IMG/VR virus record: IMGVR_UViG_3300005673_000046
Length of the DNA: 64,000 nt
Direction: 5' to 3' (one strand)
DNA from: an uncultured virus (IMG/VR IMGVR_UViG_3300005673_000046)
Lineage: Duplodnaviria > Heunggongvirae > Uroviricota > Caudoviricetes
The position numbers and the translations under genes were made by a program. The notes below the pieces were generated by a model. It was given only the letters and a program-made list of their open reading frames with translations, had not been told where the DNA came from and did not search any database. This document shows, one piece after another, positions 1-55,827 of this stretch (positions are counted from its first letter, which is position 1; every line of letters begins with the position of its first letter).

Positions 1-1
1 C

Positions 2-58
2 GACGACAGCAAGACGCCCAACGTGGAGTTCAGCGGCGGCCCGCTGGACAGTCGATGA
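2..58 (+). CDS. 3' end of an upstream cassette gene (partial)
   Basis: Frame reads DDSKTPNVEFSGGPLDSR* into the first attC, as other cassette genes do; truncated by the window edge. Confidence 0.5.
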   Translation, partial: DDSKTPNVEFSGGPLDSR

Positions 59-101
59 ACCTGGGCGGCCGAGGGCCGTCCGCTGCAACGCAGGGTTAGA
101 A
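16..101 (-). mobile_element. attC: attC site 1
   Basis: Minus strand: TTCTAAC-cctgc-GTTGCAGC-ggAcggccc...gggccgcc-GCTGAAC-tccac-GTTGGGC; R'', L'', L' and R' boxes with two extrahelical bases. Confidence 0.88.
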
Positions 102-104
102 ACC

Positions 105-383
105 ATGACGGTGATAGACCTCGCACAAGCGAAAGCGGAAAAGACGCCGCACCTGAGCGGAACGGCGGTGTGCTTGGCATGTAAGCACGAGTGGGTGGCG
201 GTGGCGCCAGTCGGGGCGGTATGGATGGAGTGCCCGGCCTGTTCGCTTGAGCGCGGAAGGTATCGAGGCCCGGTGCAGCTAGACCGCGACCATTGGCACT
301 GCCACTGCGGTAATGATCTGTTCCAGGCCACGCAAGATGGGATGTACTGCCCGAACTGCGGGGAGTGGCAGCATGGTTTCTAA
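105..383 (+). CDS. Cys-rich Zn-finger/ribbon protein (cassette gene)
   Basis: CxxC/CxC pairs (CLAC, CPAC, CHC, CPNC); stop TAA lies inside the TTCTAAC core box. Confidence 0.85.
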   Translation: MTVIDLAQAKAEKTPHLSGTAVCLACKHEWVAVAPVGAVWMECPACSLERGRYRGPVQLDRDHWHCHCGNDLFQATQDGMYCPNCGEWQHGF

Positions 384-449
384 CGGCGGAGTGGAGCCGC
401 ACGCGGAGGCCGCAGGCCGTAGCGTGTCGGCTCGCACGACTGGTTAGGC
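378..449 (-). mobile_element. attC: attC site 2
   Basis: Minus strand: GCCTAAC-cagtc-GTGCGAGC-cgAcacgc...gcgtgcg-GCTCCAC-tccgcc-GTTAGAA. Confidence 0.9.
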
Positions 450-494
450 CCCGGCTCCGAAGCGCGCAATGCAACCGTACTAGGACTAAACGAC

Positions 495-833
495 GTGGAT
501 AAGCAAACCGACCTGATTTCGAGGCTGCAAGACGAGGCCGACTTGTGCCGCAACGATGGCGCCGCCGACATTGCCGCGCTGCTGGATGAGGCGGTTGAGG
601 CGATACGCGACCGCAACCATGACACGCAAGTGGGCGAGAAGTGGCGCCAGGACAGCCGGCTGGAGACGTGGTTCCCGCTGACGGCCGAGCAGCGGAAGGT
701 CGAGCAAGCGGTGCTTGCCGAACTGGTGCTGAAGACTGGCGAGCTGATCGAGCACTTGCAAAGGACCGGGCGCCTGAAGCCCTGCTTCTACATGCCGGCG
801 CTGGCTGATGCGCGCAACGTGCTGGCGAACTGA
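495..833 (+). CDS. hypothetical phage protein (cassette gene)
   Basis: GTG start after AGGA; protein-like composition. Confidence 0.75.
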   Translation: MDKQTDLISRLQDEADLCRNDGAADIAALLDEAVEAIRDRNHDTQVGEKWRQDSRLETWFPLTAEQRKVEQAVLAELVLKTGELIEHLQRTGRLKPCFYMPALADARNVLAN

Positions 834-850
834 CAAGGAAGACATGACAC

Positions 851-1231
851 ATGGACACGCCCGAAGAGCGCGCGCTGACCGCTGCCGTGTTTGAGGCTCT
901 CGACCTGAGCCCAGAGCAGTTCTTGACGGACGGCGGCTTGGTCAATCGCGGCAAGCTCCGCGCGGCCCTTTGGTATCCGCATGACTACCTGCCAGAAGGG
1001 CACTGGATGCGCGCTGCCGATGAAGGGCGATTGCGTGCGGAGAACGCCGCGCTCAAGCGCGACCTGCAGTACGCCAGGGACGGGCTGACGAAGGGGCGCA
1101 CGCGGATGCGAGAAGACAACGAGCGGTTGCGCGCCGCGCTGGTGAAGATTGAGGCCGGCATGTGCATTGACCCGCGCACTGTGGCGCGCGAGGCATTGGG
1201 GCCTAACGTTCGAGGCAAGCCGCGCCGCTAG
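851..1231 (+). CDS. hypothetical protein with coiled coil (cassette gene)
   Basis: AAGGA RBS; LRAENAALKRDL coiled coil; C-terminus reads into attC3. Confidence 0.75.
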   Translation: MDTPEERALTAAVFEALDLSPEQFLTDGGLVNRGKLRAALWYPHDYLPEGHWMRAADEGRLRAENAALKRDLQYARDGLTKGRTRMREDNERLRAALVKIEAGMCIDPRTVAREALGPNVRGKPRR

Positions 1232-1257
1232 GCGTCGGCTTGGGCGAGGGGTTGGCC
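1201..1257 (-). mobile_element. attC: attC site 3 (57 bp, 59-be-like)
   Basis: Minus strand: GGCCAAC-ccctc-GCCCAAGC-cgAcgcc-tagc-ggcgcg-GCTTGCC-tcgaac-GTTAGGC. Confidence 0.88.
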
Positions 1258-1285
1258 GGCGTGGTTCCGGCGCGAAAGGACAGGC

Positions 1286-1717
1286 ATGAACCAAGACAAG
1301 CAAACGGATGGCGGCGAGGACCGCGAGTTTCGCGAGTGGTGTATTGCTGCCGCGCAGTCCGCCGAAGGCTCTGCGTCGATCACGGCGCGCAACGCATGGA
1401 ACGCTCGGGCCGCCCTGGCAAACATTGCGGTGGGCGCGTACCTCGGGAAGATGACGCTGCGAGACCGTGACGTTGCGATGGATGCATCGCTGGAGTCCTT
1501 GCAAACCACCGCCTACGCCGATGGCCGCGCAGACGAGCGCACCGAAGTTCGTGCCGAAGTCTTGCGCGAACTGCTGGAGTGGGAGGCCCACTACATGCAA
1601 CTGGCTCGGGGCGGCGACAGAAGCGGGCACAGCGATGCTCGGGCAGACGCGGCGCGTGAGATTCACGACCACCTGCGCAGTTCGTGGGAAGTGCGCGGCA
1701 AGCAACAAGCCGGCTAA
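1286..1717 (+). CDS. hypothetical phage protein (cassette gene)
   Basis: AAGGA RBS; stop TAA lies inside the GGCTAAC core box. Confidence 0.8.
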   Translation: MNQDKQTDGGEDREFREWCIAAAQSAEGSASITARNAWNARAALANIAVGAYLGKMTLRDRDVAMDASLESLQTTAYADGRADERTEVRAEVLRELLEWEAHYMQLARGGDRSGHSDARADAAREIHDHLRSSWEVRGKQQAG

Positions 1718-1811
1718 CGCCTGAGTTCAGGCGCCCGCCAAGGCTGCACGGCGGCGTGAGATGCAGCGAGGCGGCCCGCCGTGGCGGGTCGCCTGGAACG
1801 ACCAGTTCGGC
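1712..1811 (-). mobile_element. attC: attC site 4
   Basis: Minus strand: GCCGAAC-tggtc-GTTCCAGG-cgAcccgcca...tggcgggcg-CCTGAAC-tcaggc-GTTAGCC. Confidence 0.88.
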
Positions 1812-1843
1812 TGGGTACAGATGCACCGGAAAGGAGGCCCGCG

Positions 1844-2104
1844 ATGGGCAAGCTACAACTGAGCGCCGCCGAGAAGGCGGTGATGGACAAGGGCGTCGAG
1901 TTTGGCATGAACATGCTCAAGCTGGTGCCGACCGACGACGCGCTGGCAAAGGAGGCGCACATCACGGGCGTGCTGATCGCCTTCTGGGGCGCGCTGTGGG
2001 GCACGTTCGGCACCGAGTACGCGCGCGGCTTCATCGAAGCCCAGCTCCGAGGCATGGAACCCGGCCAACCGCACGAGCGGTTCACGCCGCCCCGAGTGCA
2101 GTAA
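1844..2104 (+). CDS. hypothetical protein (cassette gene)
   Basis: AAGGAGG RBS before ATG 1844; starts MGKLQLSAAEKAVMDKG. Confidence 0.8.
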   Translation: MGKLQLSAAEKAVMDKGVEFGMNMLKLVPTDDALAKEAHITGVLIAFWGALWGTFGTEYARGFIEAQLRGMEPGQPHERFTPPRVQ

Positions 2105-2107
2105 GAG

Positions 2108-2160
2108 GCCGAACTTGAATTACCGGACACCCTCCCCAGGCCCTGTCCGATAACGCCGCT
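2108..2160 (-). mobile_element. attI-like or degenerate attC site ending the array
   Basis: Minus-strand core GTTCGGC (2114-2108); inverted repeat TTACCGGACA/TGTCCGATAA (2120-2129/2144-2153); no RYYYAAC R'' box. Confidence 0.55.
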
Positions 2161-2174
2161 GTACCATTCTCCGA

Positions 2175-3164
2175 ATGACCAAGCGCCCCGGTCTGCCGAA
2201 GCGGGTCTACGAGAAGCACGGCCGCTACTGGTTCGTCGACGCGACGGGCAAGTGGAATGCCCTGACCCGCGTGAGCGAAGGCTTGCCCGCGATGTTCCGC
2301 GCGCTGGCCACGCTGACCGACCGCGAGCTGCGCAACGACACGATGCCGGCCGTCGCTGCCCGCTGGGTGGAGTTCAAGCTGCCTCACTGGGCGCCTGGCA
2401 CGGCCGAGGACATGAAGCGCAGCGCCGACCTGGTCGCCAGGCGCTTTGCCGAGTTCCGGCCCTCCGAAGTCACCACGCCGGTCTGCTGGGAGTTCCTGAG
2501 CGCCTACAGGGGCACGCCGCGGGCCCACAACCGCCATCGCACCGTGCTCAAGGGGATACTCGCGTTCGCCGCGCGTGAGGGGCTGCGCGAGGGCTTCTCG
2601 CCGTTGGACAACATCCCCCAGATGCGGATGGAGCCGCGTCGGCGGATCGTCACCGACGCCGAGGTCAAGGCGCTCAAGACCGCGCTCATGCAGCAGGCCC
2701 GCGGCGGCGCGACGCACTGCTTGATGGTGGACCTGTGCATGCTCACCGGCCAGCGCATCGGCGACGTGCTCAAGATGCGCTGGCAGGACGTCACCGACGA
2801 CGGCCTGCTGGTGGACCAGGGCAAGACGGACGCCCGACTCACAATCGAGTGGACGCCCGAGCTGCGCCAGGTGATCGACGCCTGCGCGGCCGGACGCGAC
2901 CGCATCGGCTACCTGCTGGTGCAGTCCACCGGCAAGCCCTACCGCTACGCCGGGGTGCGCAGCGCATGGGTGCGCGCGTTGGCCCGCGCCGGCATCGAGG
3001 ATCTGCACATTCACGACCTGCGCGGCCGCGCTGGCGCGGACGTGACCGATGAGCGCGGCATCGAAGAAGCGCAGCGCCTGCTCGGGCACGAGTCGGTGCG
3101 GATGACCGAGCACTACGTCAGGGGCAAGACCAGAAGGCGGGCCCGGCCCGCTGGAGCGAAGTGA
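2175..3164 (+). CDS. int: phage-type tyrosine recombinase/integrase
   Basis: TGQRIGD (R), QGKT (K), HDLR, LLGH, TEHY (Y); N-terminal LPKRVYEKHGRYWF arm-binding-like segment; no IntI-specific insertion. Confidence 0.95.
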   Translation: MTKRPGLPKRVYEKHGRYWFVDATGKWNALTRVSEGLPAMFRALATLTDRELRNDTMPAVAARWVEFKLPHWAPGTAEDMKRSADLVARRFAEFRPSEVTTPVCWEFLSAYRGTPRAHNRHRTVLKGILAFAAREGLREGFSPLDNIPQMRMEPRRRIVTDAEVKALKTALMQQARGGATHCLMVDLCMLTGQRIGDVLKMRWQDVTDDGLLVDQGKTDARLTIEWTPELRQVIDACAAGRDRIGYLLVQSTGKPYRYAGVRSAWVRALARAGIEDLHIHDLRGRAGADVTDERGIEEAQRLLGHESVRMTEHYVRGKTRRRARPAGAK

Positions 3165-3198
3165 TGCAACGACGATCTTTCCAGCTTGTGTTGCGTCA

Positions 3199-3384
3199 AT
3201 GAACAGCGCGGAGATGATGATTGCCATGGGCTACGGCGGCGCGGCGCTGCTCGCGCTCAATACGATCCTGTGGCTGCTGCTCGCCACCGATGCGTGGTGC
3301 CTGCGCAGGGCGGGACTCAACGCGGCGCTGGCGCTGCTGATGCTTGGCTATGGGCGCCTCGGAGAGTGGCTGACAGGTGTCTAA
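3199..3384 (+). CDS. small membrane protein
   Basis: 61 aa with two hydrophobic segments. Confidence 0.45.
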   Translation: MNSAEMMIAMGYGGAALLALNTILWLLLATDAWCLRRAGLNAALALLMLGYGRLGEWLTGV

Positions 3385-3544
3385 GAACCGCCCCAGAACC
3401 CGCATGAATGCTGGGTCGGGTTCGGCGGAATTCGTTAGACGAATCGGCCGCTAACCCGCATGGATGCTCACTTTCGCACCTGCCTTCTAAGCTGGTGCCC
3501 ATCCTATGGTGAGTGTCTAATTTTCGGCCGATTGTCTAATTTTC
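3378..3544. mobile_element. attP: attP region
   Basis: Core GCACCTGC-CTTCTAA-GCTGGTGC (3476-3498); arm-like repeats TGTCTAA at 3378, 3514, 3533 and inverted TTAGAC at 3435; repeat AACCCGCATG(A/G)ATGCT at 3397 and 3453; just downstream of int. Confidence 0.75.
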
Positions 3545-3617
3545 CGCCCGTAGCTCAGCTGGATAGAGCACGCGCCTTCTAAGCGCGGGGTCGGGGGTTC
3601 GATCCCCTCCGGGCGGG
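3544..3617 (+). tRNA. tRNA-Arg(TCT), CCA not encoded
   Basis: Acceptor CCGCCCG/CGGGCGG, D arm GCTC/GAGC, anticodon arm CGCGC-CTTCTAA-GCGCG, T arm GGGGG-TTCGATC-CCCTC. Confidence 0.95.
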
Positions 3618-3619
3618 CA

Positions 3620-6600
3620 TCACTGCTCCTCCAGCTCGTACCCCTCGGCGCGCGCGCGCCGGCGCTCGACCTCTTGCCAGCGCCGGTCGATCTTGCGCAT
3701 CGCCTTGTCGATGGCGTCCTGCTCGGCCTCCCAGCGGTCATCCTCGGACAAGCCGCTGCGCTCCAGGCCGATGATGGTCCGCCGCAGCTGGGCTTCGATT
3801 TCCCGCAGCTCGGCGTTGATGCCCTGCATGAACAGGTATTCCTGCGTCTCCGGGGCGTAGCTGCCCAGCTTGACGCCGATGGCGCTGAAGAAGGCCTGCG
3901 CCAGCGATGCCTTCTCCTGGCCCAGCGGGCCGGGCTCGATGCGGCCGCGCCAGGCGTTCAGCAGGTTCTCGGTGCTGTAGGTGCCCGGCAGGCCTGGGAA
4001 GTTGGGCATCAGGCCCTTCCACAGGTGTTCGGCGCTGGCGCCCAGCTTCTCGCCGAGCTCGTCGGTGCGCAGCGTGATGTCGCGCCCGGTGAAGCCGGCG
4101 GTGTTGAGCATGAACTCGAAGAACAGCACGGCCGGGCCGCCCGGGATCAGCGGCGGCGGGATCGGGACGGCGGCGTTGCCTGTGCCCGTGTCCACGATGT
4201 CGCCCAGCGCCACCCAGCGCCGCACGTCCAGGAAGACGGGGTTGCCGTTGGCGTCGTTCCAGGGCATGCGCACCAGCTTCGGGGTCAGGAAGCCCCAGAT
4301 GCGCCCGGCCTTCTCGTCGGCCAGCCAGGCGCGTTCGCGCTCCTCGTCGCCGTCGTCGCCCAGCATCATGTAGGCCAGCGTGTTCAGCGACCCAGCGACC
4401 AGGCCGTACTTCATGAGCTTGTGCGGCTTGTCGACCGCGGTCTTCAGCATCATCGGCACCGCCCGGTAGGTGAAGGAGAAGAACGGCCAGACGGTGCGCC
4501 GCATCGCGTTGACCCACGGCGCGGAGATTTCGTAGTTGAGGAAAGAGTCGCGCGCGAACTTGCCGGCGTCGTGGTCACTGATGCCGTCCTCGCGCGCCTT
4601 GACGAAGGCGGCCAGGCGGAACACCACATCCTCGGCGCCGTACAGCTTGATGAGCTTGCGCGGCACCCAGGCCGCCGCGCGACCGACTGGCGCATCCTTC
4701 GCGGCCGCCAGCGCCTGGCGATACTCCCGGTGGCGCAGCAGGTCCATGACCTGGGCCGCGGTGATGAGCGATTGGCCGCCGGCGTCGCGCTCAATCTCGC
4801 GCCGCAGCTCCTCGAGCAGCGGCTTGTAAAGCTCCTCGCGGATTTCGACCTCGTTGAACATGCCGGCGTCGCCGCCGTTGTCCTCGAAGTCCTCCACCAG
4901 CTTCTTCATCTCCGGGTCGGAGCGCGCGGTGGCCATCGCCCTGAGCGCCAGGTACAGGTGCCGGCCCTGAATGTCGTGCATGTCCGCGAACAGCCAGTTG
5001 GCCATCACGTTGTTCATGTGTGTGACCGGACTCAGCGCGGTCTTGCTGATCTTCCAGAGCTTGAGCATGCTCTGCCACAGCCTGGACAGCTGCCCCTGGT
5101 CGGTGAACTGACCGATCTGGCGCAGCTCGTTCCAGACCGGCCCCGGCACCCAGCGGCCGGCCAGGTTGCCGAACGCGGTGACGTTGGTGCCCTTGATCTT
5201 GGTGCTCGGCACCTGGACCCACTCGTTCTTGAGGTAGCTGCGCGCCAGGAAGTAGCTGGCGTCGGCCTGCTTGGCCCCTGCCGGCAGGCGCGACTCGTCG
5301 GCGACTGACTCGTTGCGCGCGACCCAGTCCAGGAAGCGCGCCGTCTCGATGTCGCGCGTCATCTGCATCATGGTGGCCACGGTGGCGAACTTGACCTCCT
5401 GAATCTCGCCCATCTTCGTGCGCTCGGCCAGGGTGAAGTCGCGCCACATGCCGACCTTGTCCTTCTGGTCGAAGAACCGGGCTTCCCACAGGCCATCGTT
5501 GCGCCAGCCCAGCAGGTGTCGCGGGATCGGCACGTCCTCGGGCCAGTAGACGATCTGGCGGATGCGGCCCAGCGGCTGGCCGTTCTCGTCCTCGAACAGC
5601 TGCGGCGTGTCGTCGTCGCGCGGCTTGTCGCGCAGCTCCAGGCGGTGGAACTTCTGGCCCTTGAGCGAGGGATCGTGCGCGCCACTGTTGGTCTTGCGCT
5701 GCCACCAGTCGGCGGTCCCGATCTGCGCCATCGAGGCGTTGTCGCGCATGCCGCGGCCCTTGAGCGTGTCGCCCAGAATGCGGATCGACCGCGACTTGAC
5801 CTCGTTGGCCAGGCGCTCGTCGGCGGTGTGACGCTCGTAGCTGCGGTGCATGTACGCGAAGCGGTTGCGCTCGCGTGACTCGGCGCTGATGAGCCCCAGG
5901 CGCACGGCCTCATCGGACAGGTGCTCGATGTCCTGCTTGAGGCTGGCCAGCACGGCGCGCTGTCCTTCCGGCAGCGCGTCGAACAGGGCGGCCGCGGCGC
6001 GCATGGCCGGCTCGGCCCCGGGGTTCTCGGGGTTGGTGTTCATCCACAGGTACGCGACGCGCGACTGCTCCATCGTCAGGGCGCGGAGCTTGTCCACCGT
6101 CTCGCGGGTCTTGCGCGCGTTGACCCGGATCGCGGTGCGCATCGCGGTCTTGGCCTCGCTGAAGCCATCGCTCACGCCGTAGCGGTCCACCAGCCCGGCC
6201 TTGATGTATTCCCAGTAGTCGCCCATGTGACCGCCCAGGAAGGCGTCGGCCATCCTGCCGGCATGCACTGCCCCGGGGGCGACGACCTTCTTGATGAGCG
6301 CGTCGACCGGCGTGGCGACCAGCTGCACCGGCTTCTCGATGGCGTAGTTCACCAGGTCGAAGGCGCTGAATGGCGTCTCCATGGTCGCGCGCGGCAGCTT
6401 GAGGCTGATCGGGCGCAGCGACGGGGGCGCAGCGGCGGGCGGCGGCTGCTGGCTCAGCGCCGGCAGCTCGCCGCGGTCGACATGCGGCGTCGCCGCCACG
6501 GCGCGCCGGGCGGACATCAGCAGGTCGAAGGTTTCCGCCTCGGTCAGGCTCTCCAGCCAGTCGGCAATGGCCTTGCCGAACTCGCCGAACCGCTGGCGCA

Positions 6601-9600
6601 GGGCGCGCTGCAGGCTGGCCATCACGTAGCGCCAGGCCTTGGGCGCCGGCGCGCCGGCAGCGCGATCGGCCAGCGCCTCCTCCACCGCCAGCGCCTGAAC
6701 GGCCTGCTCGGCATCCTGCCGCGACATCCCCAGGCCGACCCTGGCCTGCACCTGCGCGGCGCCCCACTGGGCATGCCAGGCAGCCGCCTCGGTCGCCAGC
6801 GCAGGGTTGGCGGCGCGCAGCGCCAGCATCATCTGGGTGTAGCGGTCGCCCAGGAACGCGCGCAGGCCGAAGTGCCCGTAGACCTCGTGCCAGAGCACCC
6901 GCAGGCCCTCGTCGATGCTGCCGATCATGTCCGCGACGAGGAACACCCGGCCATCGGGCATCAGCAGCCCGCGCGTGCTGTTCAGCGCGCGCATGCGGCG
7001 CAGGTAGTCCTGGATGTCCGGCGGCAGCTCGGCGGCAGTGCGGGCAACGGCCACGACCGGCATGCCGGGCTCGCGCGACCAGTGCCTGGTGGCCTCGGCC
7101 ACGGCGGCGCCGAGCTTGTCCGGCGCGACGCCGGGGGCGTACTTGCTGCGCCGCTTCGTCGCCGGCTGCCCGGACATCACCGGCAGCCCGCCGCCGGGCT
7201 CGGTGCCGCGCTCGGCGGCCGAGGACATGCTGACCGGGTCGATCACGTCCAGCAGGCGGACGTCGGCCAGCGCCAGCGCGGCCTTGATGTTCTCCAGGGT
7301 GCGCTCGTCGTAGGCGCCGCCCGGGTTCATGACCAGCACCGTGCTGGCGGCCGCCTCGGCCGCCGAGTTGATGAGCCGGTCGTAGCGGTCATCCTGGCGA
7401 AGCCGGCCGGCCACAGCGGGCGCCAGCGGCACCCAGGCGGTGGGCTTGCTCTGGTAGTTCATGAACAGCAGGCCCGGCCGCGAGTCCGCCGCATGCAGCA
7501 CGAGCGCCTTGTCCTTGGCCTCTGCAGGCGAACCGATCACGCTGAGGCCGGTCTGGCGAGACTCGATGGTGCGCTCGACCACGGGCACCGTCGTCGTCGT
7601 GGTCGCGCTCGGCGTGACCACGCCGCTGTAGGTGCCGCCCTCCGGGGTGACGGCCATGAAGCGGGTGATCCCGTCATCGTCGGCCACCGCGGCCAGGCCG
7701 CGCCAGCGCACGGTCGACGGCTCGAAGGAGCGCGCCATCGCCTGGCTCAGGTTCTCGTCGGCACGCGACAGTTCGCTGCGGCCGCTGGGGTGGTTGTGGA
7801 CCGCCCATACCGAGTGCGCATCCTTGATGCGCATGGCCTCCATCAGCACGACGCCGGGATAGACCGAGGTCTGCGACGGAGCGCCCTTGAAAGCGCCGAT
7901 GATGGCCAGCGGGCGGCCGTTCTTGTCGGTGACGAGCGCGTCGAAGTGCTCGACGGCGTAGCGCGTCAGCGCGGAGAGGGCTGCGGCCGCCTCGTTCCAG
8001 TTGGTGACGCGAGCAACCGGCAGATCGTGCCGCCGGACTTCGACGAGCTGGCTGGTGACGTGGTAGATGCCGGGGAAGAACGGGTCTTCCCGCACAGATA
8101 CGGCGTTGGGGGCTGGTACGTTCCGACGCGGGGCGCGGCCGGCCCGAGGTGGATTTCCTCCTCGGGGATCGGGTAGCGGTTGTTCGAACAGGTCATAGTT
8201 GGCCTCGGGCTCGTTGACAGCGTACACCGCGCGCTCCTGCGCGGCAACGGGCGGCACGGGGAAGGCGTCCAGCACCATCTGCAGGCGGTGCAGTGCAACG
8301 AAGGTGCCCCCGTCCTTGTTGAAGACGAAGGACTCCGGCAGCGCGGCCTTCACCTGCTGCGCGTCGACGTGCCGCAGGATCACGCCGAGAATGAGCTTGC
8401 CCTGGCGCGTGGTGTGCCCGATGACCTCCAGCCCGTGCTTGGTCGCCAGCTCCTCGCCGCTGGTCCTGGCCTCGGCCTTGGCGGCCTTCTTCTTCTCGCG
8501 CTCCTGGCGCGCCTGGTCGGCCGGCGGCGCGGCACCGTCGACGCCTTCCTCGGCGCCTTCCTCGGCGCGCGGCTTCGTGCGCTCTGGCACGCCCAGGTTC
8601 TCGACCTCGCCGAACAGCTCGGCAATGTCCTGCGTGCCGGAGAAGTCGTACTCCACCGGCGCCGGCGCGGTCTGGTCCTTGCCCAGCTTGTCGATCACGA
8701 CGATGCGCGTGCGGACGCCGGTGCCGGCGCGCGCGAAAGCCACGCCAGGCAGCCGGATGGTGGCGACGACATGGGCGCCCGGCGCGATGGGCTCGGACTT
8801 CTTGCGCGGGCCGGACTCCTCCAGCTTGTCGATGGCCGAGCCGAGCACGGGTTCGATGCGCCCGGTGTCCTGCATCTTGGCCATGACGTGGGTGTCGTGG
8901 ACCTCGCGGACGTGCCCCACGCGTCCGTTGCGCAGCTCGATGCGGTCGTCGTAGAACAGCTCGGCCTCGCCGTCGGCGATGCGGGCAGTGCCCAGCGCCT
9001 TGATCGGCACGTCCTGGGTGCCGCGCAGGAACTTCTCCAGCCGCGCGTCGGCGGCCGGCCCCTCGGGCAGCAGCGCGACGATGCGGCCGCCCTCGAACAG
9101 GTGCTGGTTGTAGGCCTTGGCCAGGTGCTCGAAGGCCAGCTTGCCGCCACGCTCGAACGGCGGGTTCATGGCGATGCCCCAGGCCTTGTTGGCCGCGGGC
9201 AAGTCCTCGAAGCGGGTTTCGCGGATGTCGCCGTCGAAGACCATGGCCAGGCGCGAGGCCAGCACGGTGCTGGGCTCGACGGCCAGGCGATGGACGGTGT
9301 CGGGCAGCCAGCGCGCGATGGCGCCGTGGCCGGCGCTGGGCTCGATGGCGAGCTCGCCGGGCCGCAAGTCCAGCCACTGGACCATCTTCAGGCCGATGGG
9401 CTCGGGGGTGGGGTAATACTCGTGCCCCTCCTCGCTCTTGGTCTGCTGGTTCTTCTTGCGCTGGGCCCAGTACATGGACATGGCGCGGTCCCAGTCGCTG
9501 AGAATCTGCGCCATCTCGCGGTCGCGCGCCTTGCCCCCGGTGCCCTCGCCCTCGAAGCCTGGTGGCCAGTCGCCCGTGTCCTCGAAGGCCTCGATGTAGG

Positions 9601-12600
9601 CGTCGCGCAGCCCGCGCGCCATCTCGCCCAGGCCCAGGTTCTCGGCCGCCTCCGCGCGCTCGGCGATCTTCTCGGCGAAGGCCGCGCGCTCCCAGGACGT
9701 CTGGGTGTTGAAGTAGCGGAACATCGCGTTGGAGGCCTGCCCCACGCGGTAGATGCGGCCCTCCTGCTGGATCGAGCGCGTCGGGCGCACCGGCAGGCCC
9801 AGGTTGATGAGCACGCGCTGGTGCTTGCCCGTGGTGTCGTGGCCGCTCCAGCCCTTGTCCTTGTCGGCCTGCACGACGAGCAGCGCCGGGCCGGTGTCGT
9901 CGTCGTTGAACCAGTCGACGGCGGCGACCTTCTCCTTGTCGGAGATGCGGCCGTTGAGCACGCGCGCGCGGTCGGCGAAGTGCTCCATCATGGTCTGGAT
10001 GGGGCTCTTGAGCGTGTCCCACGGGTAGGTGACGAGGTCGTCGAACTCCTTGCGCCAGGCCTCCATCGCGGCGTAGGCCCAGGCGTCTTCCTGCGGGTTG
10101 AACTTGACGTTGAACGGGTCCAGGCGCTGGCCCTGGATCAGGTCGTGGAACAGCACGACCTTGCGGCCCAGCTCGAGCTGAGCGCGGATGTACGGCACAG
10201 CCGCCTCGGCCTTGATGGCCTCCAGCATGCGCATGCGGGTCAGGTAGTCGAACTCGCTGCGCAGCTTGCGGCTGGCCTTGTGGATGCCGGCGCGCAGCTT
10301 GTCGAGGCCGCTCTTGGGGTCTTTCTCGTACTCCTCGCGCGCGCCCTCGGTCAGGAACGGCAGCGCCTCGCTGGGGTCGGCTTCCCAGAACCACTGCAGG
10401 CCGCGGTCGATGCGCTGGCCGATGGCCGAATTGGCCGCGATGAACTTGCGGTCGTAGTCGAAATCCGACAGCAGCATCCGGCCGCGCAGCACGCCCTGGT
10501 TCTTGAGCCAGGTGTTGAACTGGCGCTGCATGATGCTGCTGTTGACCGACCACTCCGGCTTGGTCAGCTTGCCGTAGCGCATGCGCCAGCCGAAGTGCTG
10601 GATCATGAAGTTCTGGTAGGCGCTCGGCGCGTTGTAGCCGCGGCCCGGGACGAATCCCTCGTTCCAGTCGAACAGGTAGCCCTGCGCGATGACGGTGGAC
10701 TGCTCCCAGGCGAACGGCGTGGCCGACAGCATCAGCAGCCGCGTGCGGCCGGCGCCCTGCCCCTGCTCGATCAGCGACTCCTGCTGGACCTTCAGCTCGG
10801 CGAAGCGGCGCACCTTGGGCAGCAGCACCTTGTCGATTTCGGCCGCGGCGGCGTGGTTCTGCTTCTCCAGGTGCCCTGCCTGCTCGATGGTCAGCGCCAC
10901 GATTTCCGCGTACAGCTCGGGGTGCGCCATCTGGGTCCGCGTCTCGGCCGACTCCGGGTGCATGGTCAGCGCCCGGATGCGCAGGCCCGACTCGGTGATG
11001 GTGCCCTCCTGACTCTGGCCCATCTCGTGGACCTCGTCGGCGATGACCAGATCCCACCGGCGCTTGAGCAGCGCGTTGTTGTCGCGCAGGTTGGCGTAGG
11101 TCGTGACGACGACGCCCGTGCCGTGGTCCTTGGTGTTCTCCAGCGCCGTGACCTTGAGGCCCAGGTCCGGGCCGGAGCGCAGCCACCCTTCCAGGATGTT
11201 GCGGTCGGGCACGACGACGAGGATGGCGTCCTTGCCCTGCTTGGCGAACCGCTTGGCCACGCCCAGGCCGGTATAGGTCTTGCCGGTGCCGGTGCCGTTG
11301 GTGAACAGCATGCCGTAGCCGGTCGGCTGGGTCAGCCGCGCCTCGGCGTCGATGACATCCTGCTGCTGCTCGGGCAGCAGCATGGGCAGCGAGGCCCGGA
11401 TGTTCTCCTCGTCGTTGAGCTTGACGGGCAGCGCCTCGGCCTGGCGCTGCAGCTGGCGGCGCTTCAGGACATCGGCGGCGGTGCTTCGAGCAGCGTCCTC
11501 AACAGCCCCGTCTGAGATGGGGTCAGATGCCTTTCCTTGATCGCCAGCGAAATCGCCTCGTTGATCGTCAGCACTTCGGGCACCGTCTCGGCCCACTCGG
11601 GGTTGGCCTCCAGCACGCGGCCGATCGCCTGGCGTTCCTGCAGCAGGGGTGCCACTTCCAGGTACGCCAGCGCCACCATCGGATCGCTGACCCGGGCGCG
11701 CAGCGCGTCCCCCAGCTTGTCCGTTTCCGGCGGGAGGTCGCGCACGTCCATCGCCAGCAGGCGCTTCCACAGGGGCGTCTTGGCCAGCGGGGCGATCTGG
11801 CTGCGGAGTCGGTGGGGTGCGTACAGGAGCATCGGGGGCCTCCGTCAAGTCGGCCTTGGACTTCACCTGCGCCACCGTCATCAGGTCGTCGACGCTGCCG
11901 TCGGTGTAGCGGGCGGACATCGAAATGTACGCCCCCTGCAGATGCTTCAGGGTGAGGGATTCGGCGGCCTGGGGACCGATGAACTCGGCGACGTCGGCCA
12001 GCGCCTTCGCCGCGGCCTCGCGGAAGGTCCGCTTGCCCTCGATCACCGCGGCGTCCAGCAGCTCGGCCAGCACCGGCAGCAGCGCCTGCTCCTGCTCGCG
12101 CGTGAGCGCGGGCGGCGCTGGCTTGTCGCCATACTCCGGGCCGGGCTCCTCGGCCTTGGGCGGCCCGAAGATGTCGGACATGCGGCCCAGGGCGGTCAGG
12201 CGCTTCGTGCGCGCCTCGGCCTCGCGCTCCGGCGTCGGCGCGTTCTCGCTGCGGCCCAGCGGGCCTGCGGCGAACTCGCGGGCGTCCGGCCAGGTGGAGT
12301 GCCACCGCGGCGTCTCGCCAGGCTTGCGCACCCAGCGGTCGCCCTCCTTGACGACCTCCACGACCTTCACGGCCCAGCCTCCGGCCTCGGTCGCCGGCTG
12401 GAACTCCAGCACCTCGTCGAATCCAGCGTAGCCCTGCACGATGTTGCCGGGCGTGTAGTAGGCGCGCAGCCTCTCGAACTTGGCTTCGTACTCGGCCTCG
12501 GCCTTGTTGAGCCGGTCCACGCGCGGCCGACGGCCGGGCCCGATGTCGTCGAACCGATCTTGCGGGTCGCGCCTGGCGCGCTGCAACAGCCGCTTGAGCC

Positions 12601-15600
12601 GCTCGTCGATCAGGCGGACCTCGGCGGGCGTCAAGCCGCTGCTCACCAGCGGGCCGCGCACGCGCTGCGCAGCCAGGCGCTGCGCCAGCAGCGTCGCGCC
12701 AGCGTCGGTCGCCTCCTGGATCATGCCCCGCAACCGGCTATCGGCCTCCATGCGGGCGCGATCCGCTGGGCTGACCTTGGGCCCCTTCTTGGCCGGCGCC
12801 GGCGGTGCGACCGAGTCCTCCGGCCCGGACAGCTCGCCGTCCAGCGCGAAGGCCTGCACGGTGCCCGGCGCAAAGCGCGGGTCGTCCAGTGTGTAGGTGG
12901 TCTGCATGGCGCCGCCGCCCACGTTCAGCGACTTGACCGCCGTGACCTTGGTGCGCAGCGGCGGACCGTCGGGCTCGCCGTCCGGGGTGCGTGGCTGCCA
13001 GGTGACGGGGTCGCCACTGGCGAAGCGCGGACCAGCGGCCTCCAGCTCCGACCAGCGCAGCATGCGCGAGCCGCCGACCTCGAAGCGCACGATGGCGCCC
13101 TCGAAGGCCGGCCCGGGGCCGTAGAAGCTTTCGACATACCCGGGCTGCCCGGATGCGAGTTCGCGCACGCGCTGCAGCTTGCCGACGGGGGCGTAGCCGT
13201 CGACCTCGACGCCGTCCTTGAGGTAGCGCGCGACCTGGCGGAAGCCTTCGGGGATGGCCGGCTGCGCGTCGTCCTCCGGGAACGGCTTGCGGCCTTCGAC
13301 CGCGCGCTCGATCCAGTCACCCTGGATGCCCGGCGCGTTCTTCAGGGCCCGCACCGCGGCCAGCAGGCTCTTGCGTAGCTGCTCGCCGAGCCCGTCATCT
13401 GTCGGCCACAGGTCTTTCTGGCTGAGGGCCTGGATGCCGGTGTCTTGCACCTTGCGGCCACCGTCCCACTTCGATTCCTGGGTCTGCCACTGCTGCAGCC
13501 ATTGCGCCGCGGTCATGCCTTCGGGCTTGATCCTGTTGCTCTCCAGGCGATCGGCGCCGATCAGCTGAAACGCGCGGCCATAGTCGCGCAGGGCCGGATA
13601 GGCGGTGTTGAGCCAGTAGTCGCGGATGCGCTGGCGCGCCCCCTGCTGCTGGTCGTCAGCCGGCGCTGGCGTCGCCGCCGGTGGCGCGGCGGGCGGGTCG
13701 TAGGCGCTGATCGAGCCGAACAGGTCATCCGCGCCAGGCGCGGTCAGCGTGAAGTTGTCGCGGTCGGCGTCGGCGCGCGCGCGGTTCTCGCGCTCGGCGC
13801 GCTCGGCGGCCTCGCGGGCCAGGCGCTCGCGCTCGGCCCTGGCGTCGGCCTCCAGGCGGGCTTGCTCGTCCTCGGCGCGGCGGCGCAGCTCGGCCTCGTC
13901 GTAGGGTCGAAGCAGCGGGTCGGCTTCGCCTTGCTGCTCGTCGTCCAGCCACCAGTCGCGCCCAACCGCTGACGGGCGAGCGGCATCGAGAAGCTGCTGC
14001 GCGAAGTCCCGTTCCTCGGGCGTGTCCAGTCGAACGCTGCTGCGCGACCCCGCGACCTCGCCGTCGTAGCTCAGAACCTCGCCGTCAAGCCGAACGGCGT
14101 TCATCTTGCCCAAGACGGCGGTGATGAGCTGCCGCCTCGTGGCGGTTCCGATCTGGAGGCCGAGACGCGAATCGAACGCGCCGGCGGTGATCGGCTCGTC
14201 CAGGATGCTGCGCGCACCAGGCGCCGGCGCGTTCACGTCGCCATGCCGCTGCCATGGCCTGGTCAGGTCGATGTGTGCCTTGCGGTAGGCGTCGGCCAGG
14301 CGCTCGACGGGCTGGATCATGAACAGGGTCCGCATGCGCTCGACGCTGTTCTTCGGCGACAGCCGCAGGTTCGCGCCGATCAGGCGAACCTGCTCCTCGG
14401 TGAGCGCCGCGATGGAGCGGTCCACGGCATCGAGGAACCTGGCGCGGGCAACGTCCATGCCCGACTCGCGCGCCTCGCGGTCCTTGGCCCACTGCAGCGA
14501 CCGCTGGAGCTTGGCGAGCTGGCCCTTGCGCGACTTCAGCTGCTCGGCGGTGTAGGCATCCAGCAGCGCCTTGGCTTCCTTGCTGTGGCGCGCCCAGTGG
14601 TCGGGCCCCACGTAGGACTTCGGCGTCTGCGGCTTCAGGCGCTGCTCGGCCTCATGGCGGGCTCGCAGGTGCAGGATGCGGATGGCCCGCTCGATTTCCT
14701 CGACCGTGCGGCCGCCATCCGGCGGGCGCGGCGCAGGCGGGGCGGCCGCAGCCTGGTCGCCATCGGCCGGCAGGCCCGCCACGTACTGCTTGATCGCCCG
14801 GTTCATCTCCCCGGTGCCGCCGATGAACTCGCGCACCGAGGCGTCTTCGGGGATCGCACCGTCCTCGATGGCCTTGGCCACCGCGGCGCGCATCACGCGC
14901 CGGTAGTGCTCGCCGCCGACGATCTGGATGTCGCGCGGCATGGCGGCCAGCAGGCCCACCGGCAGCTCGCCGCTGGCGATCGAGGCCACCAGCTCGTCGG
15001 CGCGCTCGGCCGTCATCAGCTGGTCGTAGGGCTCGATCACCTGGTCGGGCCGCACGAAGCCGTGCTTGGCCGACAGGATGAACAGCCGCGGCGGGCTCTG
15101 CGCGCCCAGCGCCTTGCGGTAGGTGTTCCACAGCGGGCCGGTGTAGAAATCCTTGGCCGGCGTCGGCGCGCCGAGCTTCATCGCCCCGCATGGCATGAAC
15201 AGCCCGCACTCGTCGCGCAGGACATCGGGCGCACGCTCGCGCCCGTTGACGACCCGCGAGGCTAGGTCTTCGAGCCGCCGGACGGCTTCTTGACGACCAT
15301 CCCTCGGCGCAACCGCTCCAGGCGCAACAGGCGCTCCCTGTCCGCCGGGTCCATCTTGGCCAGCTTCAGCATCGCGTCGCGCTGCTTCTTGCTCTTGGGC
15401 GGCTTCCTTGGCCAGTTCATCGGCAATCTCCTGCTCGCTGAATCCCAGCGCGCGCATCTGGTCGGCCAGGGACTGCGGCGGCGCAGGCGCATCCCAGGCA
15501 ACGTCGTCGTCATCGAGCGCGTCGAGTTCAGCCGGCGTGATCCCGGCCTCCTCCATGATGGCACGGCGCTCGGCCTCGGCCTCGGCGGCCGCTTCCTCGT

Positions 15601-18600
15601 CCAGAGCCGGGTACAGCAGCTCCGGGTGGTTGTCCGCGAGCCACTGCTCGCGTTCCTGCGGCGTCATGGCCTCCCAGGCCTGGCGCTCTGCGTCCTCGTC
15701 GGCCTGATCCTCGGCCTGCTGTTCCGCGCGGGTCTTGGGCTCGTCGCGGTTGAGCGCACTCGTCACCAGTGCGCGTGCTGCCTCGTCGGCGGCCTTGTAG
15801 TCGGCCTCGTAGGAGCCGGGATCGAGGTAGCCCTCCTCCTCCATCCACAGCGCGAGCTCGTTGGTGTCGGCGATGCCGCCGTCGCGGAACAGGCCGCCGA
15901 TGCCGGAGACGGGCGGGTTGAACCAGCGCGCCACCGGGCGGCCGTTGCGGTCGCGGCCCAGCTCCTTCTTGAAGCTCAGATCGTGCAGCAGGCTCGGGTC
16001 GATGCCGCCGAGCTGCCGGCTGATTTCGGCGAGCATCCTGGAGCCCCAGACGGTGGCCGGATGCGAGCGCACGCCGGCAACGCGGCGCACGGCCTTGGGC
16101 GTCTCCTGCGGTTCATCCCAGCGCAGGTCGTCGACCGTGCGCTGTCCGATGGCCGCCTCGATCTTGGCGGCGATCTGCTCGGGCGTGTCGTCCTTCGCCT
16201 CGGTGTTGATCGAGCGCAGGAAAGCCTCGCCCGCGGGGGTGAGCTGCCGCTTGATCGGGTGGACGAGGTCGGCCTTGCGCAGCGCCTCCAGCACGCTCAA
16301 GTCCGCGCTGGCCGTCAAGGCGCCGTTCATCATGTCGACCAGCGTGTTCAGCACCGCGCCGCCCTTCCACGGCTCCTTGCGCTGCACGCGCGTCGGCGGC
16401 TTGACGCCGGTGACTTCCTCGACCCACTTGGCGATGGCGCGCGCCTGCTGGCGCTGGCGCTCGCTCGCCAGGCTGCCGGTGGCCTCCAGGATGTTGAACG
16501 CGCTGCGCTGCAGGCTGCGCCCGGCAGCGCGCAGCGCGTCCTCGCGGGTGGGGAAGGTGTCGACCACGCTGGGCGAGCTGCTGCCGCCGCTCATCGAGCC
16601 GCCGGTGGTGTTGTAGTGGCTGCCCGGCGCCCAGGTGCCGTCTTCCAGCTCGACCAGGCTGATGTCCGCCTTGACGCCCTTGGCCTGGCCCTTGGGGGCC
16701 GGCATGACCAGCGTCGTCATGTCCGGGGTGCTGTCCGGGACGAAGACGCCGTGGTCGTTCGGCGCGTGGCCGCCCTTCGTGCGGATGCGGGGCCTGCCTT
16801 CGGGCGTCGGAGCGAGGGGTGCGGCGCCGGCCGGCGTTCCTGGCCCGCCAGGGACGCTACCCGATGAAGCCTCCTCGACAGGCCCCGGCGGCGCCGCGGG
16901 CACATTGTCGCGCACCGGCTGGCCGAGGATGCCCCCGAGGCTTTCTAGGGCCTTCCGGCGCTTCTCGGCGGCGGCGCTGGGGGCCTGCGGCGGCGCCGCG
17001 GGAGGCGGCGCGGCCGGCTCCGGTGTGGCCTGCTCGACCTGGCTGGCCAGGTCTTCGCGGTTGGCGGCGAACTTGGCCGCCAGAGCCTCGGCATGGCGGT
17101 CGCCGAACTCGTTGCCGTACTCCGCGAGGATGCCCTCGATGTCGCGCAGCGCGCTGCGCGCCGCGCCGCGCATCGTCTCGATGTCCTCGGGCTTGGCCGG
17201 CTTGCCGGTTTCGGGATTGGTGCCGGTGCGCAGCGCGTCCAGCAGCATGTTGGCTGCGGCCAGGTCGGTCTGGATGCGGCCGACCACCTGCTGGTGCGTG
17301 TCGCGCACGGCCTGCGTCAGGTAGACGGGGTCGTCCTCCAGGCCCTCGAACATCGAGTTGCGGCCGGCCGCGGCCAGCTCGTCGAACTGCGGACGCGGGT
17401 AGGTCTTCTCGTAGTCCGGCGTGTCGCTCAGTGCAGCGTCCTGAAGTCCAGCTCCAGGCTGGGCGCTTCCGGCTCCCGGTCTGCCAGTATCGCCATCGCC
17501 GGGTGCAGGCGCTCCGGGAACATCGCCAGCGGGATTGACTCCCCCGGGTACAGCAGCATCCGGTCCCAGATTTCCGCCGCCTCGGCCAGCGTTATCGAGC
17601 ACTCCAGGACCGGCTCCACCAGGAACCGCGGGAGCAGCTGCCACGTCAGACTGGTCATCGAATCCCTCCTTGAAGGCTGGCGAGAACGGCGCCTTGTGGT
17701 TGCCGGTCTTGATCCAGTCCTTGAACATCGGCATGTCCATGCCGCTCAGGTAGCCCAGGCCCCGCCAGTCGGGCGTGTAGTTGGCGCGGTAGGCGGCCTC
17801 GGCCTCTTGCGGGCTGGCGAAGCCCAGCATGACCTTGTGCTCGTCGAACTTCCCGGTGCGCGGGTCGCGCTGGTCGATCACGAAGACCGGGCCGTCGTAG
17901 TCGGGCGGCGTGCCGGGCTTGATGAAGGTGTCGACGTGGTCGCCGTCCTTGCCTTCGGTGCCGCGGATGTAGCCGTAGTGCGACTGGACCGTGTTCTCCC
18001 AAGGCTTCCCGTCGGGGTCCACGCCGCGGCGCACCGAGCCCTGCGGGTTCTCGATGCTGATGTCCAGGCCGCCCAGGCGGATGTGGCCCTTCTTGTAGTT
18101 GCCGGCCTCCTTCTGCGGGTCGGTCGGCTCCGGGAGGTCGTTGGTCGGGCTCGTGGCGGCGCCGTGCGCCGCGTCGTCGACCGGGGTGCCCAGTAGCGCG
18201 CCGGCGTCCATCGGCGCGTCCGGGTTCGCTGGCGGCGATGCGGCGGCGGCCGGCGGTGCGGCGGCGGTGCGCGGCTGCACCGGAATCTGCGGCGTGATGC
18301 CGGGCCGCTGGCCGAAGTCTGGCGGCAGGGGCGGGAGGTCGCCCATCGTGGGCTCGCGGCGCTCGGGCGCCGGCGCGCCGCCGCGGCCGCCGGTGCGCAG
18401 GCGGCCGATGGCCGCGCCGCCGGCCTGCATGACGCCGGTGGCGATGAAGGTCTGGACCGCGGTGTCGCGCATCGACTCCAGGAAGCCAGCGACCGTGATG
18501 TCCTCGTCCAGGCCGAGCTTGGTCCCGTCCACCAGGTACTGGCCGGCGCTGGTGATCTGCTCGCCGATGCCCTCACCGACCTGGCCGCGCACGACCTGGC

Positions 18601-51886: not shown

Positions 51887-52294
51887 CTACAGCGGTGGCT
51901 TGTCGCGGCCGCGCAGCCGGCGGTGGAGCTCGTCGGCGATGTCGGCGATGTCTGACTGGCGGCGGCGCTCCAGGAAGTTGAACACCCAGCGCACGACCGT
52001 CCAGGCAGGCAGCCCGCACGCGAAGACCAGCCCCAGCATCGACACCAGGCCCAGGTAGCTGTCCGCCCAGGCGTGCAGGTTGAAGTGCAAGATCACGAAG
52101 GCGCCGCCGGCCACCGAGCCGAGCACGGTGCAGATGATGCCCACGATCCACTCGCGCAAGCTGCGCGGCGGGGTCATGCACATGACCACGACCGCAGCCA
52201 GGCCGGCGCCAGCGGCCGCGGCGCCAGCCGCGCCGCCGATGGCCTTCCACCCCACCACGCCGGCGGCGGCGCCCGAGGATGCCGGGTCGCTCAT
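51887..52294 (-). CDS. holin
   Basis: Three TM segments; FACGLPAWTVVRW; upstream of the endolysin. Confidence 0.8.
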   Translation of the reverse strand: MSDPASSGAAAGVVGWKAIGGAAGAAAAGAGLAAVVVMCMTPPRSLREWIVGIICTVLGSVAGGAFVILHFNLHAWADSYLGLVSMLGLVFACGLPAWTVVRWVFNFLERRRQSDIADIADELHRRLRGRDKPPL

Positions 52295-53634: not shown

Positions 53635-53644
53635 GGCTGTCCCC

Positions 53645-55576: not shown

Positions 55577-55589
55577 GGGCAACTCCAGA

Positions 55590-55618
55590 AAGCACAAAGC
55601 CCGCCGAATGGCGGGCTT
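55590..55618 (-). terminator. intrinsic terminator between the tRNA and DUF1800
   Basis: AAGCCCGCC-ATTC-GGCGGGCTT followed by TGTGCTTTCT on the minus strand. Confidence 0.65.
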
Positions 55619-55752
55619 CAGGATCAAGAACGGGGCGATGGTGCAGGCGAGCGCAACGTCTATGCCTCGGCCGGCGCTACCCTGCACAGCGCGCCGGCGC
55701 CTATGACTTCATCCCGTGGGACGCACCACGGTTAGCCCCTGCGGGGTGTATC

Positions 55753-55827
55753 TGGATGCGAAGGCCGGAATCGAACCGACGACCTGGTGGTTATGAGCCA
55801 CCCGCTCTACCACTGAGCTACCTCGCA
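55753..55827 (-). tRNA. tRNA with CAT anticodon (Met or Ile2), CCA encoded
   Basis: Acceptor TGCGAGG/CTTCGCA, D arm GCTC/GAGC, GGTGG-CTCATAA-CCACC, GTCGG-TTCGATT-CCGGC, T-CCA. Confidence 0.92.

Follow-up and report, generated by a model that had tools for sequence, protein, structure and literature searches.

A probable phage-borne integron remnant with reversed cassette polarity in an uncultured tailed virus

Integrons are known chiefly as bacterial gene-capture devices that spread antibiotic resistance. Integron parts borne by phages have been reported lately, as rarities. Here we investigate a 64,000-nucleotide stretch of DNA from an uncultured virus of the Caudoviricetes (IMG/VR record IMGVR_UViG_3300005673_000046), the whole of which is called the window below. 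Positions 16-2174 of the window are very probably a phage-borne integron remnant, composed of an attI-like site (2114-2174) and at least four cassettes bounded by attC recombination sites, without an integron integrase gene (intI). The hairpins between the genes are integron attC sites, and comparison with other DNA identifies the units between them as discrete mobile cassettes. The window is a clean case of its kind, with base-exact boundaries that are confirmed in independent samples. Phages would appear to exchange single small genes by integron recombination.

The integron integrase (IntI) would have made and moved these cassettes, and this would be the reason that the two ends of each unit pair across its gene. 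[quoted passage not shown] The cassettes would be transcribed by read-through from upstream phage promoters, the remnant being placed, on this proposal, at the end of the early operon of a temperate phage, directly before the phage integrase gene and a tRNA-Arg attachment region. By the textbook rule, cassette genes should face away from the integron platform, and this architecture departs from it: the genes occupy the recombining strand, with intI, in the relatives that have it, downstream of them. Is this array a phage-native integron that has lost its integrase gene? Or, was a piece of a bacterial chromosomal integron acquired as a block?

attC sites and cassette units

A covariance model (R1) was built solely from class 1 integron attC sites, those of aadB, an orf cassette, cmlA5, aac(6')-Il and blaIMP-1. 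Run with its filters off over both strands of the 64 kb (128 kb), the model gave four full-length matches, all on the minus strand and scoring 26.5-39.3 bits. These are listed with their folding energies, first as they stand and then circularised.

16-101, minus strand: attC_0, 86 bp; R1 30.2 bits, E 1.5e-6, full length; fold -22.8, then -31.4 kcal/mol circularised
378-449, minus strand: attC_A, 72 bp; R1 35.9 bits, E 2.7e-8; fold -21.8, then -29.8 kcal/mol circularised
1201-1257, minus strand: attC_B, 57 bp; R1 26.5 bits, E 2.1e-5; fold -20.6, then -25.8 kcal/mol circularised
1712-1811, minus strand: attC_C, 100 bp; R1 39.3 bits, E 2.5e-9; fold -32.3, then -34.3 kcal/mol circularised

The next-best match in the window had an E-value of 0.039 and was without boxes, and the plus-strand reading of the four sites scored 8.6-9.3 bits. 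For attC bottom strands, Nivina 2016 (PMC5027507) describes an R' box bearing AAC that is cut between A and C, spacers 5-6 nt long and lengths of 57-141 bp. The lengths of the four sites, 57-100 bp, are inside that range. Their R' boxes, in the order of the list, are GCCCAAC, TTCTAAC, GCCTAAC and GGCTAAC, and their R'' boxes are GTTAGAA, GTTAGGC, GTTGGCC and GTTCGGC; in attC_0 these are at 16-22 and 95-101 of the plus (bottom) strand. AAC and GTT are present in all four sites, although some of the other letters stray from the purine and pyrimidine pattern of RYYYAAC and GTTRRRY.

The four sites have a common hairpin plan, which on the plus strand consists of AAC, a short spacer, a stem with a bulged T on its 3' arm, a loop and GTT. 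Folds of the circularised DNA and the R1 alignment both give imperfect hairpins whose arms each have an unpaired central spacer of about 5-6 nt and whose terminal structure varies. The T bulge is at position 23 (plus strand) in all four, and in three of them there is a second bulged base (G, C and G), 5-6 bp away. The extrahelical bases reported for the L'' arm of attC sites are a conserved T at 23/24 and, about 6 bp from it, usually a G at or near position 16 (Nivina 2016, PMC5027507). The weakest site is attC_B, in which the outer L box is mispaired and the T bulge stands alone, the second bulge being absent. When the sequence at 1196-1262 was compared with plasmids by BLAST, 2389 records matched. 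In the two that were examined the match was the attC site of the aadB cassette of a class 1 integron, and the minus strand of the window corresponded to the top strand of that cassette.

The cuts, AA/C on the plus strand, which is the bottom and recombining one, are at 21/22, 383/384, 1206/1207, 1717/1718 and 2113/2114 (the slash marks the cut). An initial sequence-only reading of this DNA had attributed the complementary ends of each unit to G/TT crossover of circular cassettes. The circular-cassette crossover stands, but it is not located at the GTT boxes of the plus strand; it is in the AAC boxes, where G/TT is read on the minus strand. Two consequences follow from this. Because the crossover is in the plus-strand AAC boxes, each gene travels with the attC site upstream of it and not with the one downstream, and because the recombining strand is the plus strand, every gene is antisense relative to the genes of canonical cassettes. 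The units are as follows.

2-58, plus strand: 3' end of an upstream cassette-type gene, complete in the source contig (L018:195-452); G+C at third codon positions (GC3) 0.84, positive codon score
22-383, plus strand: cassette c1, attC_0 and the open reading frame (ORF) 105-383; predicted zinc ribbon (Pfam A2L_zn_ribbon, E 8e-6)
384-1206, plus strand: cassette c2, attC_A and ORFs 495-833 and 851-1231
1207-1717, plus strand: cassette c3, attC_B and ORF 1286-1717; end boxes 9/10, TAA stop in the R' remnant
1718-2113, plus strand: cassette c4, attC_C and ORF 1844-2104; the first cassette, adjoining the attI-like site
2108-2174, minus strand: array start, with a lone R' box GCCGAAC (plus strand), the cut 2113/2114 and then the attI-like segment, found by BLAST to L044

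By codon scores, the plus-strand frames are the best for coding in all four units. In a canonical cassette the ORF is on the attC top strand, where it is readable from the Pc promoter, and here the ORFs are on the bottom (plus) strand. The TAA stop codon of the c1 ORF, like that of c3, is in the R' remnant. The gene ending at 58 has its last 12 codons and stop codon inside attC_0, and its 15 relatives in viral contigs are all within or adjoining attC arrays. Both this gene and ORF 851-1231 overrun the crossover into the attC site of the next cassette, by 37 nt and 25 nt respectively, so their C-termini depend on which cassette is next. Searches of PHROGs, Pfam and NCBIfam gave no function for four of the five cargo proteins, and the leads from a protein atlas all scored below 0.9.

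In addition to the identity and polarity of the attC sites, the array has the footprint of swapped ends. The box pairs named in the sequence-only reading were all recovered: 95-107 pairs with 372-384 at 13/13 positions, 443-452 with 1198-1207 at 10/10, 1251-1260 with 1709-1718 at 9/10 and 1805-1811 with 2108-2114 at 7/7. As that reading also claimed, the boxes pair better across each gene (7, 7, 6 and 7 of 7) than in place (4, 5, 5 and 5 of 7). For every GTT box the best partner among the five AAC boxes is the one across the gene to its right. Circularising the units in silico had been suggested as a check; every fold gained by it, by 2.0 to 8.6 kcal/mol, and the closed R box was restored. The footprint is also found more widely. 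Over 37 units in 11 arrays, the match of a unit's own ends was the better one in 22, equal in 11 and worse in 4.

The sequence-only reading was open to refutation by shuffled controls with equally good end matches. Region 1-2200 was compared with 500 dinucleotide shuffles and with 28 other real 2.2-kb tiles of the window. The longest exact inverted repeat in the region is 13 nt, and there are three GTT-anchored repeats of at least 10 nt. Exact repeats of at least 13 nt were present in 4.8% of the shuffles and in 4 of the 28 tiles. At least one GTT-anchored repeat of at least 10 nt was seen in 1.4% of the shuffles and in none of the tiles, and two or more, against the three of the real region, were seen in 0 of 500 shuffles. 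A lone 13-mer, and certainly a 7-mer, is unremarkable by itself, but the chain of repeats anchored on GTT and AAC is not due to chance.

Cassettes in other phages and metagenomes

A search for the same boundaries in other DNA had been proposed with the sequence-only reading, which would be contradicted by homologous genes that share flanks beyond them. Copies of c1 and c2 with at least 99% identity were found in other phage contigs and other metagenomes, and the likeness of these copies ends at the predicted cuts. For c1, the closest locus (L055) matches 18-385 at 99.2%, its identity starting right after CCAA/C and stopping at TTCTAA/C. Another (L054) matches 78-385 at 98%, and six loci (L054-L059) lose their likeness at 384-391. 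A 642-nt contig from an alkali-sediment sequencing run (X11) spans 13-390 with one mismatch. For c2, a 5.3-kb contig from a riverine run (X6) spans 380-1208 with one mismatch and has unlike DNA before 380 and after 1208, while a contig of a freshwater run (X5) covers 521-1208 and ends at 1208. A joint of 36 to 1770 in run X5 was rejected, as its flanking side is just 21 nt and so too short for the threshold of the comparison. The contigs compared with 1-3300 cover it in part, and the comparison applies to the stretches that they cover. In a wastewater contig c1 and c2 are adjacent as they are in the window, but 621-853 is missing. The loss of this segment fuses the front of the first c2 gene to the start of the second.

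Less similar relatives of the cassettes were also found. Likeness to c2 runs from 395 or 416 to 854 in L013 and L014, and is confined to 416-823 in L016, a contig of a Betaproteobacteria metagenome-assembled genome (MAG) that contains phage lysozyme and tail genes. In these three loci the 3' part of attC_A goes with the downstream gene. A Nitrospirales contig (L017) was set aside, having a weak protein match and no attC site. For c3 there is a partial homologue (L012) of 1547-1737. For c4, the likeness of L045 and L046 ends at 2114, and the same gene comes first in the array of L044. In every case examined, the attC site ahead of the gene moves along with it and the attC site behind the gene does not.

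Two further features of the c2 relatives were seen. ORF 495-833 has a 30-residue insert (593-698 of the window) that is missing from the L013 and L014 homologues. A leader of about 55 nt, from the R'' box to the start codon, is the same after two attC sites of L014 (484-565 and 985-1044) and at 450-505 of the window, and it is more conserved than the attC sites themselves.

The sequence-only reading had also held that the units were inserted independently by attC recombination. Independent movement of the units somewhere is what these comparisons establish; they do not extend to separate insertion into this phage, and the wastewater contig keeps c1 and c2 together.

Array start, related arrays and alternative explanations

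Behind the lone box at 2108-2114, no attC site was found by R1. The box fits an array start in the reversed polarity, whereas in the opposite polarity it would be an unexplained truncated site. Beyond the cut, likeness to L044 continues through 2115-2158, and in L044 the segment ends at the start codon of an IntI that scores 417.6 bits on TIGR02249 (cut-off 265). In a five-way alignment, the segments have a common start, GCCNAAC followed by NNNAATT. From these likenesses, 2114-2174 would be an attI site left without its intI, which has presumably been lost from this phage. [quoted passage not shown] The window has four within 1.8 kb, on the minus strand and with no integron integrase nearby, and the arrangement of a complete integron, with intI beside the array, is not found in the window. 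Nor was a second recombinase found among the larger window ORFs scanned with Pfam and/or PHROGs. As there is no IntI gene in the window, recombination in the present day would need IntI in trans, from a co-resident phage or from the host.

The relatives of this array were investigated in 47 gene-oriented loci, gathered with the upstream gene and three cargo genes, some of which are possibly copies of one another. R1 gave 90 matches at E <= 0.01, in 30 of the 47 loci, and 90 of the 90 are opposite to the strand of the query gene. Among 38 units between attC sites, a positive-scoring ORF is on the bottom-strand side in 28 and on the other side in none, 10 being undecided. Of the 15 related viral records searched, 4 have an IntI that exceeds the family cut-off, and one of these records has terminal repeats and is rated complete. 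In L041, L042, L044 and L045 intI is just downstream of the cassette genes, shares their strand and faces away from the array. Between the cut of the first cassette and the start codon of intI there is an attI-like spacer, about 40-55 nt long, in L041, L042 and L044, and in L041 and L042 a second integrase, of phage type, follows intI on the same strand. The large terminase of the window has a single distant match across five of the related records. With the terminase nearly unmatched, the backbones of these phages differ while their cassettes are common to them.

One related locus has two adjoining methyltransferase-like cassettes (L042:9633-10923, minus strand), with a Pfam N6_N4_Mtase match at E 5e-13 and a weak Dam match. 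The N6_N4_Mtase cassette is opposite to its attC sites and so has the same reversed polarity. These cassettes echo the methylase cargo that has been reported for phage CALINs.

We lean, with some reserve, towards the view that the window holds a decayed member of an undescribed, phage-adapted form of integron. In this form the genes would be on the bottom strand, and cassettes, attI, intI and phage integrase would make one co-directional unit read from early promoters, giving a pool of small phage genes shuffled by IntI. It would be carried by phages of wastewater and freshwater whose backbones are unlike. Through the flip, the recombining strand may come to lie on the non-template or the lagging-strand-template side, which would favour folding.

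Several observations weigh against an integron remnant of this description. The score of attC_B is just 26.5 bits, and R1 produced a false match of 24.8 bits (E 9e-5), without AAC and GTT boxes, within an integrase coding sequence of two identical loci (L006 and L010). Scores at the level of attC_B are therefore no proof alone, and the site leans on its boxes and on the boundary data. In L012, the partial homologue of c3, likeness extends 20 nt past the cut, without a scorable attC site. No attC site was detectable at homologues of the c4 gene in 5 of 11 loci, nor at homologues of the c1 gene in 8 of 15. The attI likeness consists of about 44 nt by which one BLAST match extends, together with a five-way alignment that is loose, and direct BLAST of the attI-like segment against L041 and L042 gave no match. 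No IntI was found in the window when the neighbouring integrase was compared with NCBIfam and most of the other larger ORFs with Pfam and/or PHROGs; this negative covers the window alone, and the source contig extends 3.9 kb further. Likewise, a sigma-70 scan of 1-3700 found no promoter, which leaves read-through as the presumed means of expression.

Could the array instead be a piece of a bacterial chromosomal integron, acquired en bloc by illegitimate recombination or by IntI at an attG-type site, rather than a phage-native integron minus its intI? Fragments of host chromosomal integrons in phages have been published (Qi 2023, PMC9892861), cassette insertion by IntI can also occur at GWT sites that are not att sites (Loot et al. 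preprint, 10.1101/2022.09.11.507474), and the junction on the minus strand here reads CAAG/TT. The Betaproteobacteria MAG that includes L016 has further arrays as well. However, the segment beyond the junction resembles the attI ahead of intI in a phage contig, and the related arrays examined are all among phage genes and have the same reversed polarity. The other arrays of the MAG also have phage-like neighbours, and for two cargo proteins the closest protein clusters come from viruses, these being weak leads with scores below 0.9. Acquisition as a bacterial block is an improbable origin, if one with published precedents.

The arrays of this MAG are two in addition to L016, with seven attC sites in L037 (G005:C6) and three in L038 (G005:C128), and both have bottom-strand genes and phage-like neighbours. 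The sole IntI match in the MAG is a 115-aa N-terminal fragment on another contig. Also in the MAG, at L039:5011-5070, is a low-G+C attC site of 62 bits, located between ORFs that by their translations only are IS110-type transposase-like and resolvase-fragment-like. It may be a fragment of a clinical-type integron, unrelated to the phage arrays.

The surroundings of the array bear on a second alternative. The window, phage DNA with a G+C content of 70% across its length, corresponds to positions 395-64394 of a metagenome contig of 68,308 bp (L018, matched via the first 40 nt of the window), and the cassette array comes last, at the far end, in a series of plus-strand genes, followed by a tyrosine integrase and a tRNA-Arg.

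2175-3164, plus strand: phage tyrosine integrase, not an integron integrase (Pfam Phage_integrase, phrog_1; arm-type architecture)
3544-3618, plus strand: tRNA-Arg (TCT); its 3' 45 nt (3574-3618) are repeated beside integrase relatives
Minus strand: genes for small and large terminase, portal, major head, internal virion and tail fibre proteins, and a 5447-aa ORF
Near the right end of the window: RecT, a repressor-like gene and a replication initiator

Might the phage integrase, and not IntI, recombine the sites, as a new integron-like system? It occupies the classical place of intI, at a distance of 60 nt from the first crossover, and points away from the top strand of the array. It has arm-type architecture, though, and no match to TIGR02249 in the NCBIfam scan. 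Beside its 9 relatives (29-60% identity) there is a tRNA-Arg 3' fragment, and R1 found no attC arrays with them, while in four related arrays a true IntI is in that position, with a separate phage integrase after it. We consider this explanation very improbable. The last 45 nt of the same tRNA beside the integrase relatives indicate that integrase and tRNA-Arg are the phage's own attachment system, of which 3574-3618 is the probable core. No shared DNA upstream of the gene was found for the integrase relatives, and no 'empty site' was seen.

A third alternative, to which we likewise give next to no weight, is that the hairpins are terminators, repetitive extragenic palindromic (REP) repeats or chance palindromes with coincidental end matches: exact inverted repeats of 10-13 nt are not rare singly in DNA of 70% G+C and the fold z-scores of the sites in place are modest (-1.6 to -3.1), but R1 matches below E 1e-4 are at these four places alone, the GTT-anchored repeats have no counterpart in the tiles nor their multiplicity in the shuffles, a simple scan of 1-3700 for G+C-rich stems with a T run after them found no terminator-like site (shuffle mean 2.2), and whole units are found elsewhere, broken at the cut sites. 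The sequence-only reading had likewise excluded terminators and REP elements.

Other features of the window are less closely connected with the array. The tRNA is the sole Rfam match within 1-3700. The 5447-aa ORF (3620-19963, minus strand, GC3 0.92) terminates one base past the tRNA-Arg. A DNA comparison of known phages with 13.5 kb of the structural region gave no near match, and the closest capsid protein, from an Achromobacter phage, is at most 47% identical. Between lysis-like genes and the early region are a DUF1501/DUF1800 pair (52291-55687, minus strand), which we take to be bacterial-type families, and a tRNA-Met (55753-55827, minus strand). This stretch may be a moron or the junction of two elements.

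Comparison with known integron systems

Compared with classical cassette arrays such as the class 1 integrons of plasmids L001 and L002, the array has the same attC architecture and sequence, AAC cut and end-swap footprint. The cassettes are also alike in being compact and apparently promoterless, with stop codons in the box and with the top strand directed away from the platform. [quoted passage not shown]

The insertions at attG sites, and the single attC sites lacking integron integrase (SALINs) and small CALINs, that the Loot et al. preprint (10.1101/2022.09.11.507474) treats are similar in that cassettes are outside a complete integron with a G/TT-type junction. The junction of the window differs by continuing into a segment that resembles the attI beside intI of another phage, and this makes an attG origin less likely. 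A non-classical relative orientation of integrase and cassettes is shared with the 'inverted integrase' integrons, for example those of Treponema (Cury 2016, PMC4889954). In those, by that account, intI faces the same way as the attC sites, whereas in the phage relatives intI is classical with respect to attC and the flip concerns the cassette genes. Strand placement has been linked to attC folding, which is favoured on the lagging-strand template, and chromosomal arrays mostly hold the bottom strand on the leading-strand template (review, PMC8946536). If the arrangement described here is general, it would provide a natural test of the control that strand placement has over attC folding. It would also imply a separate, phage-specific cassette pool and a route for accessory genes between unrelated phages, possibly including counter-defence genes such as the methylases of the relatives.

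The nearest published cases are the phage integrons of Qi 2023 (PMC9892861), where 3 complete integrons, one In0 and 17 CALINs were reported in 10,705 phage genomes, phage attC sites were found to recombine with IntI1, and the typical cases are in the usual gene orientation. The array resembles those CALINs in having at least two attC sites on one strand, no intI nearby, cargo that is mostly small genes of no assigned function, and bacterial-like attC sites. It differs from them in three respects: all window genes are on the attC bottom strand, there is an attI-like remnant, and kin arrays are present across unlike backbones. No description of phage arrays with reversed polarity was found in a partial literature search that did not cover the Qi 2023 supplements. 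Phage-borne clusters of attC sites are therefore already known. What sets this array apart is the flipped polarity of the genes, a putative attI remnant that lacks its intI, and membership of a family of phage integrons that are co-directional.

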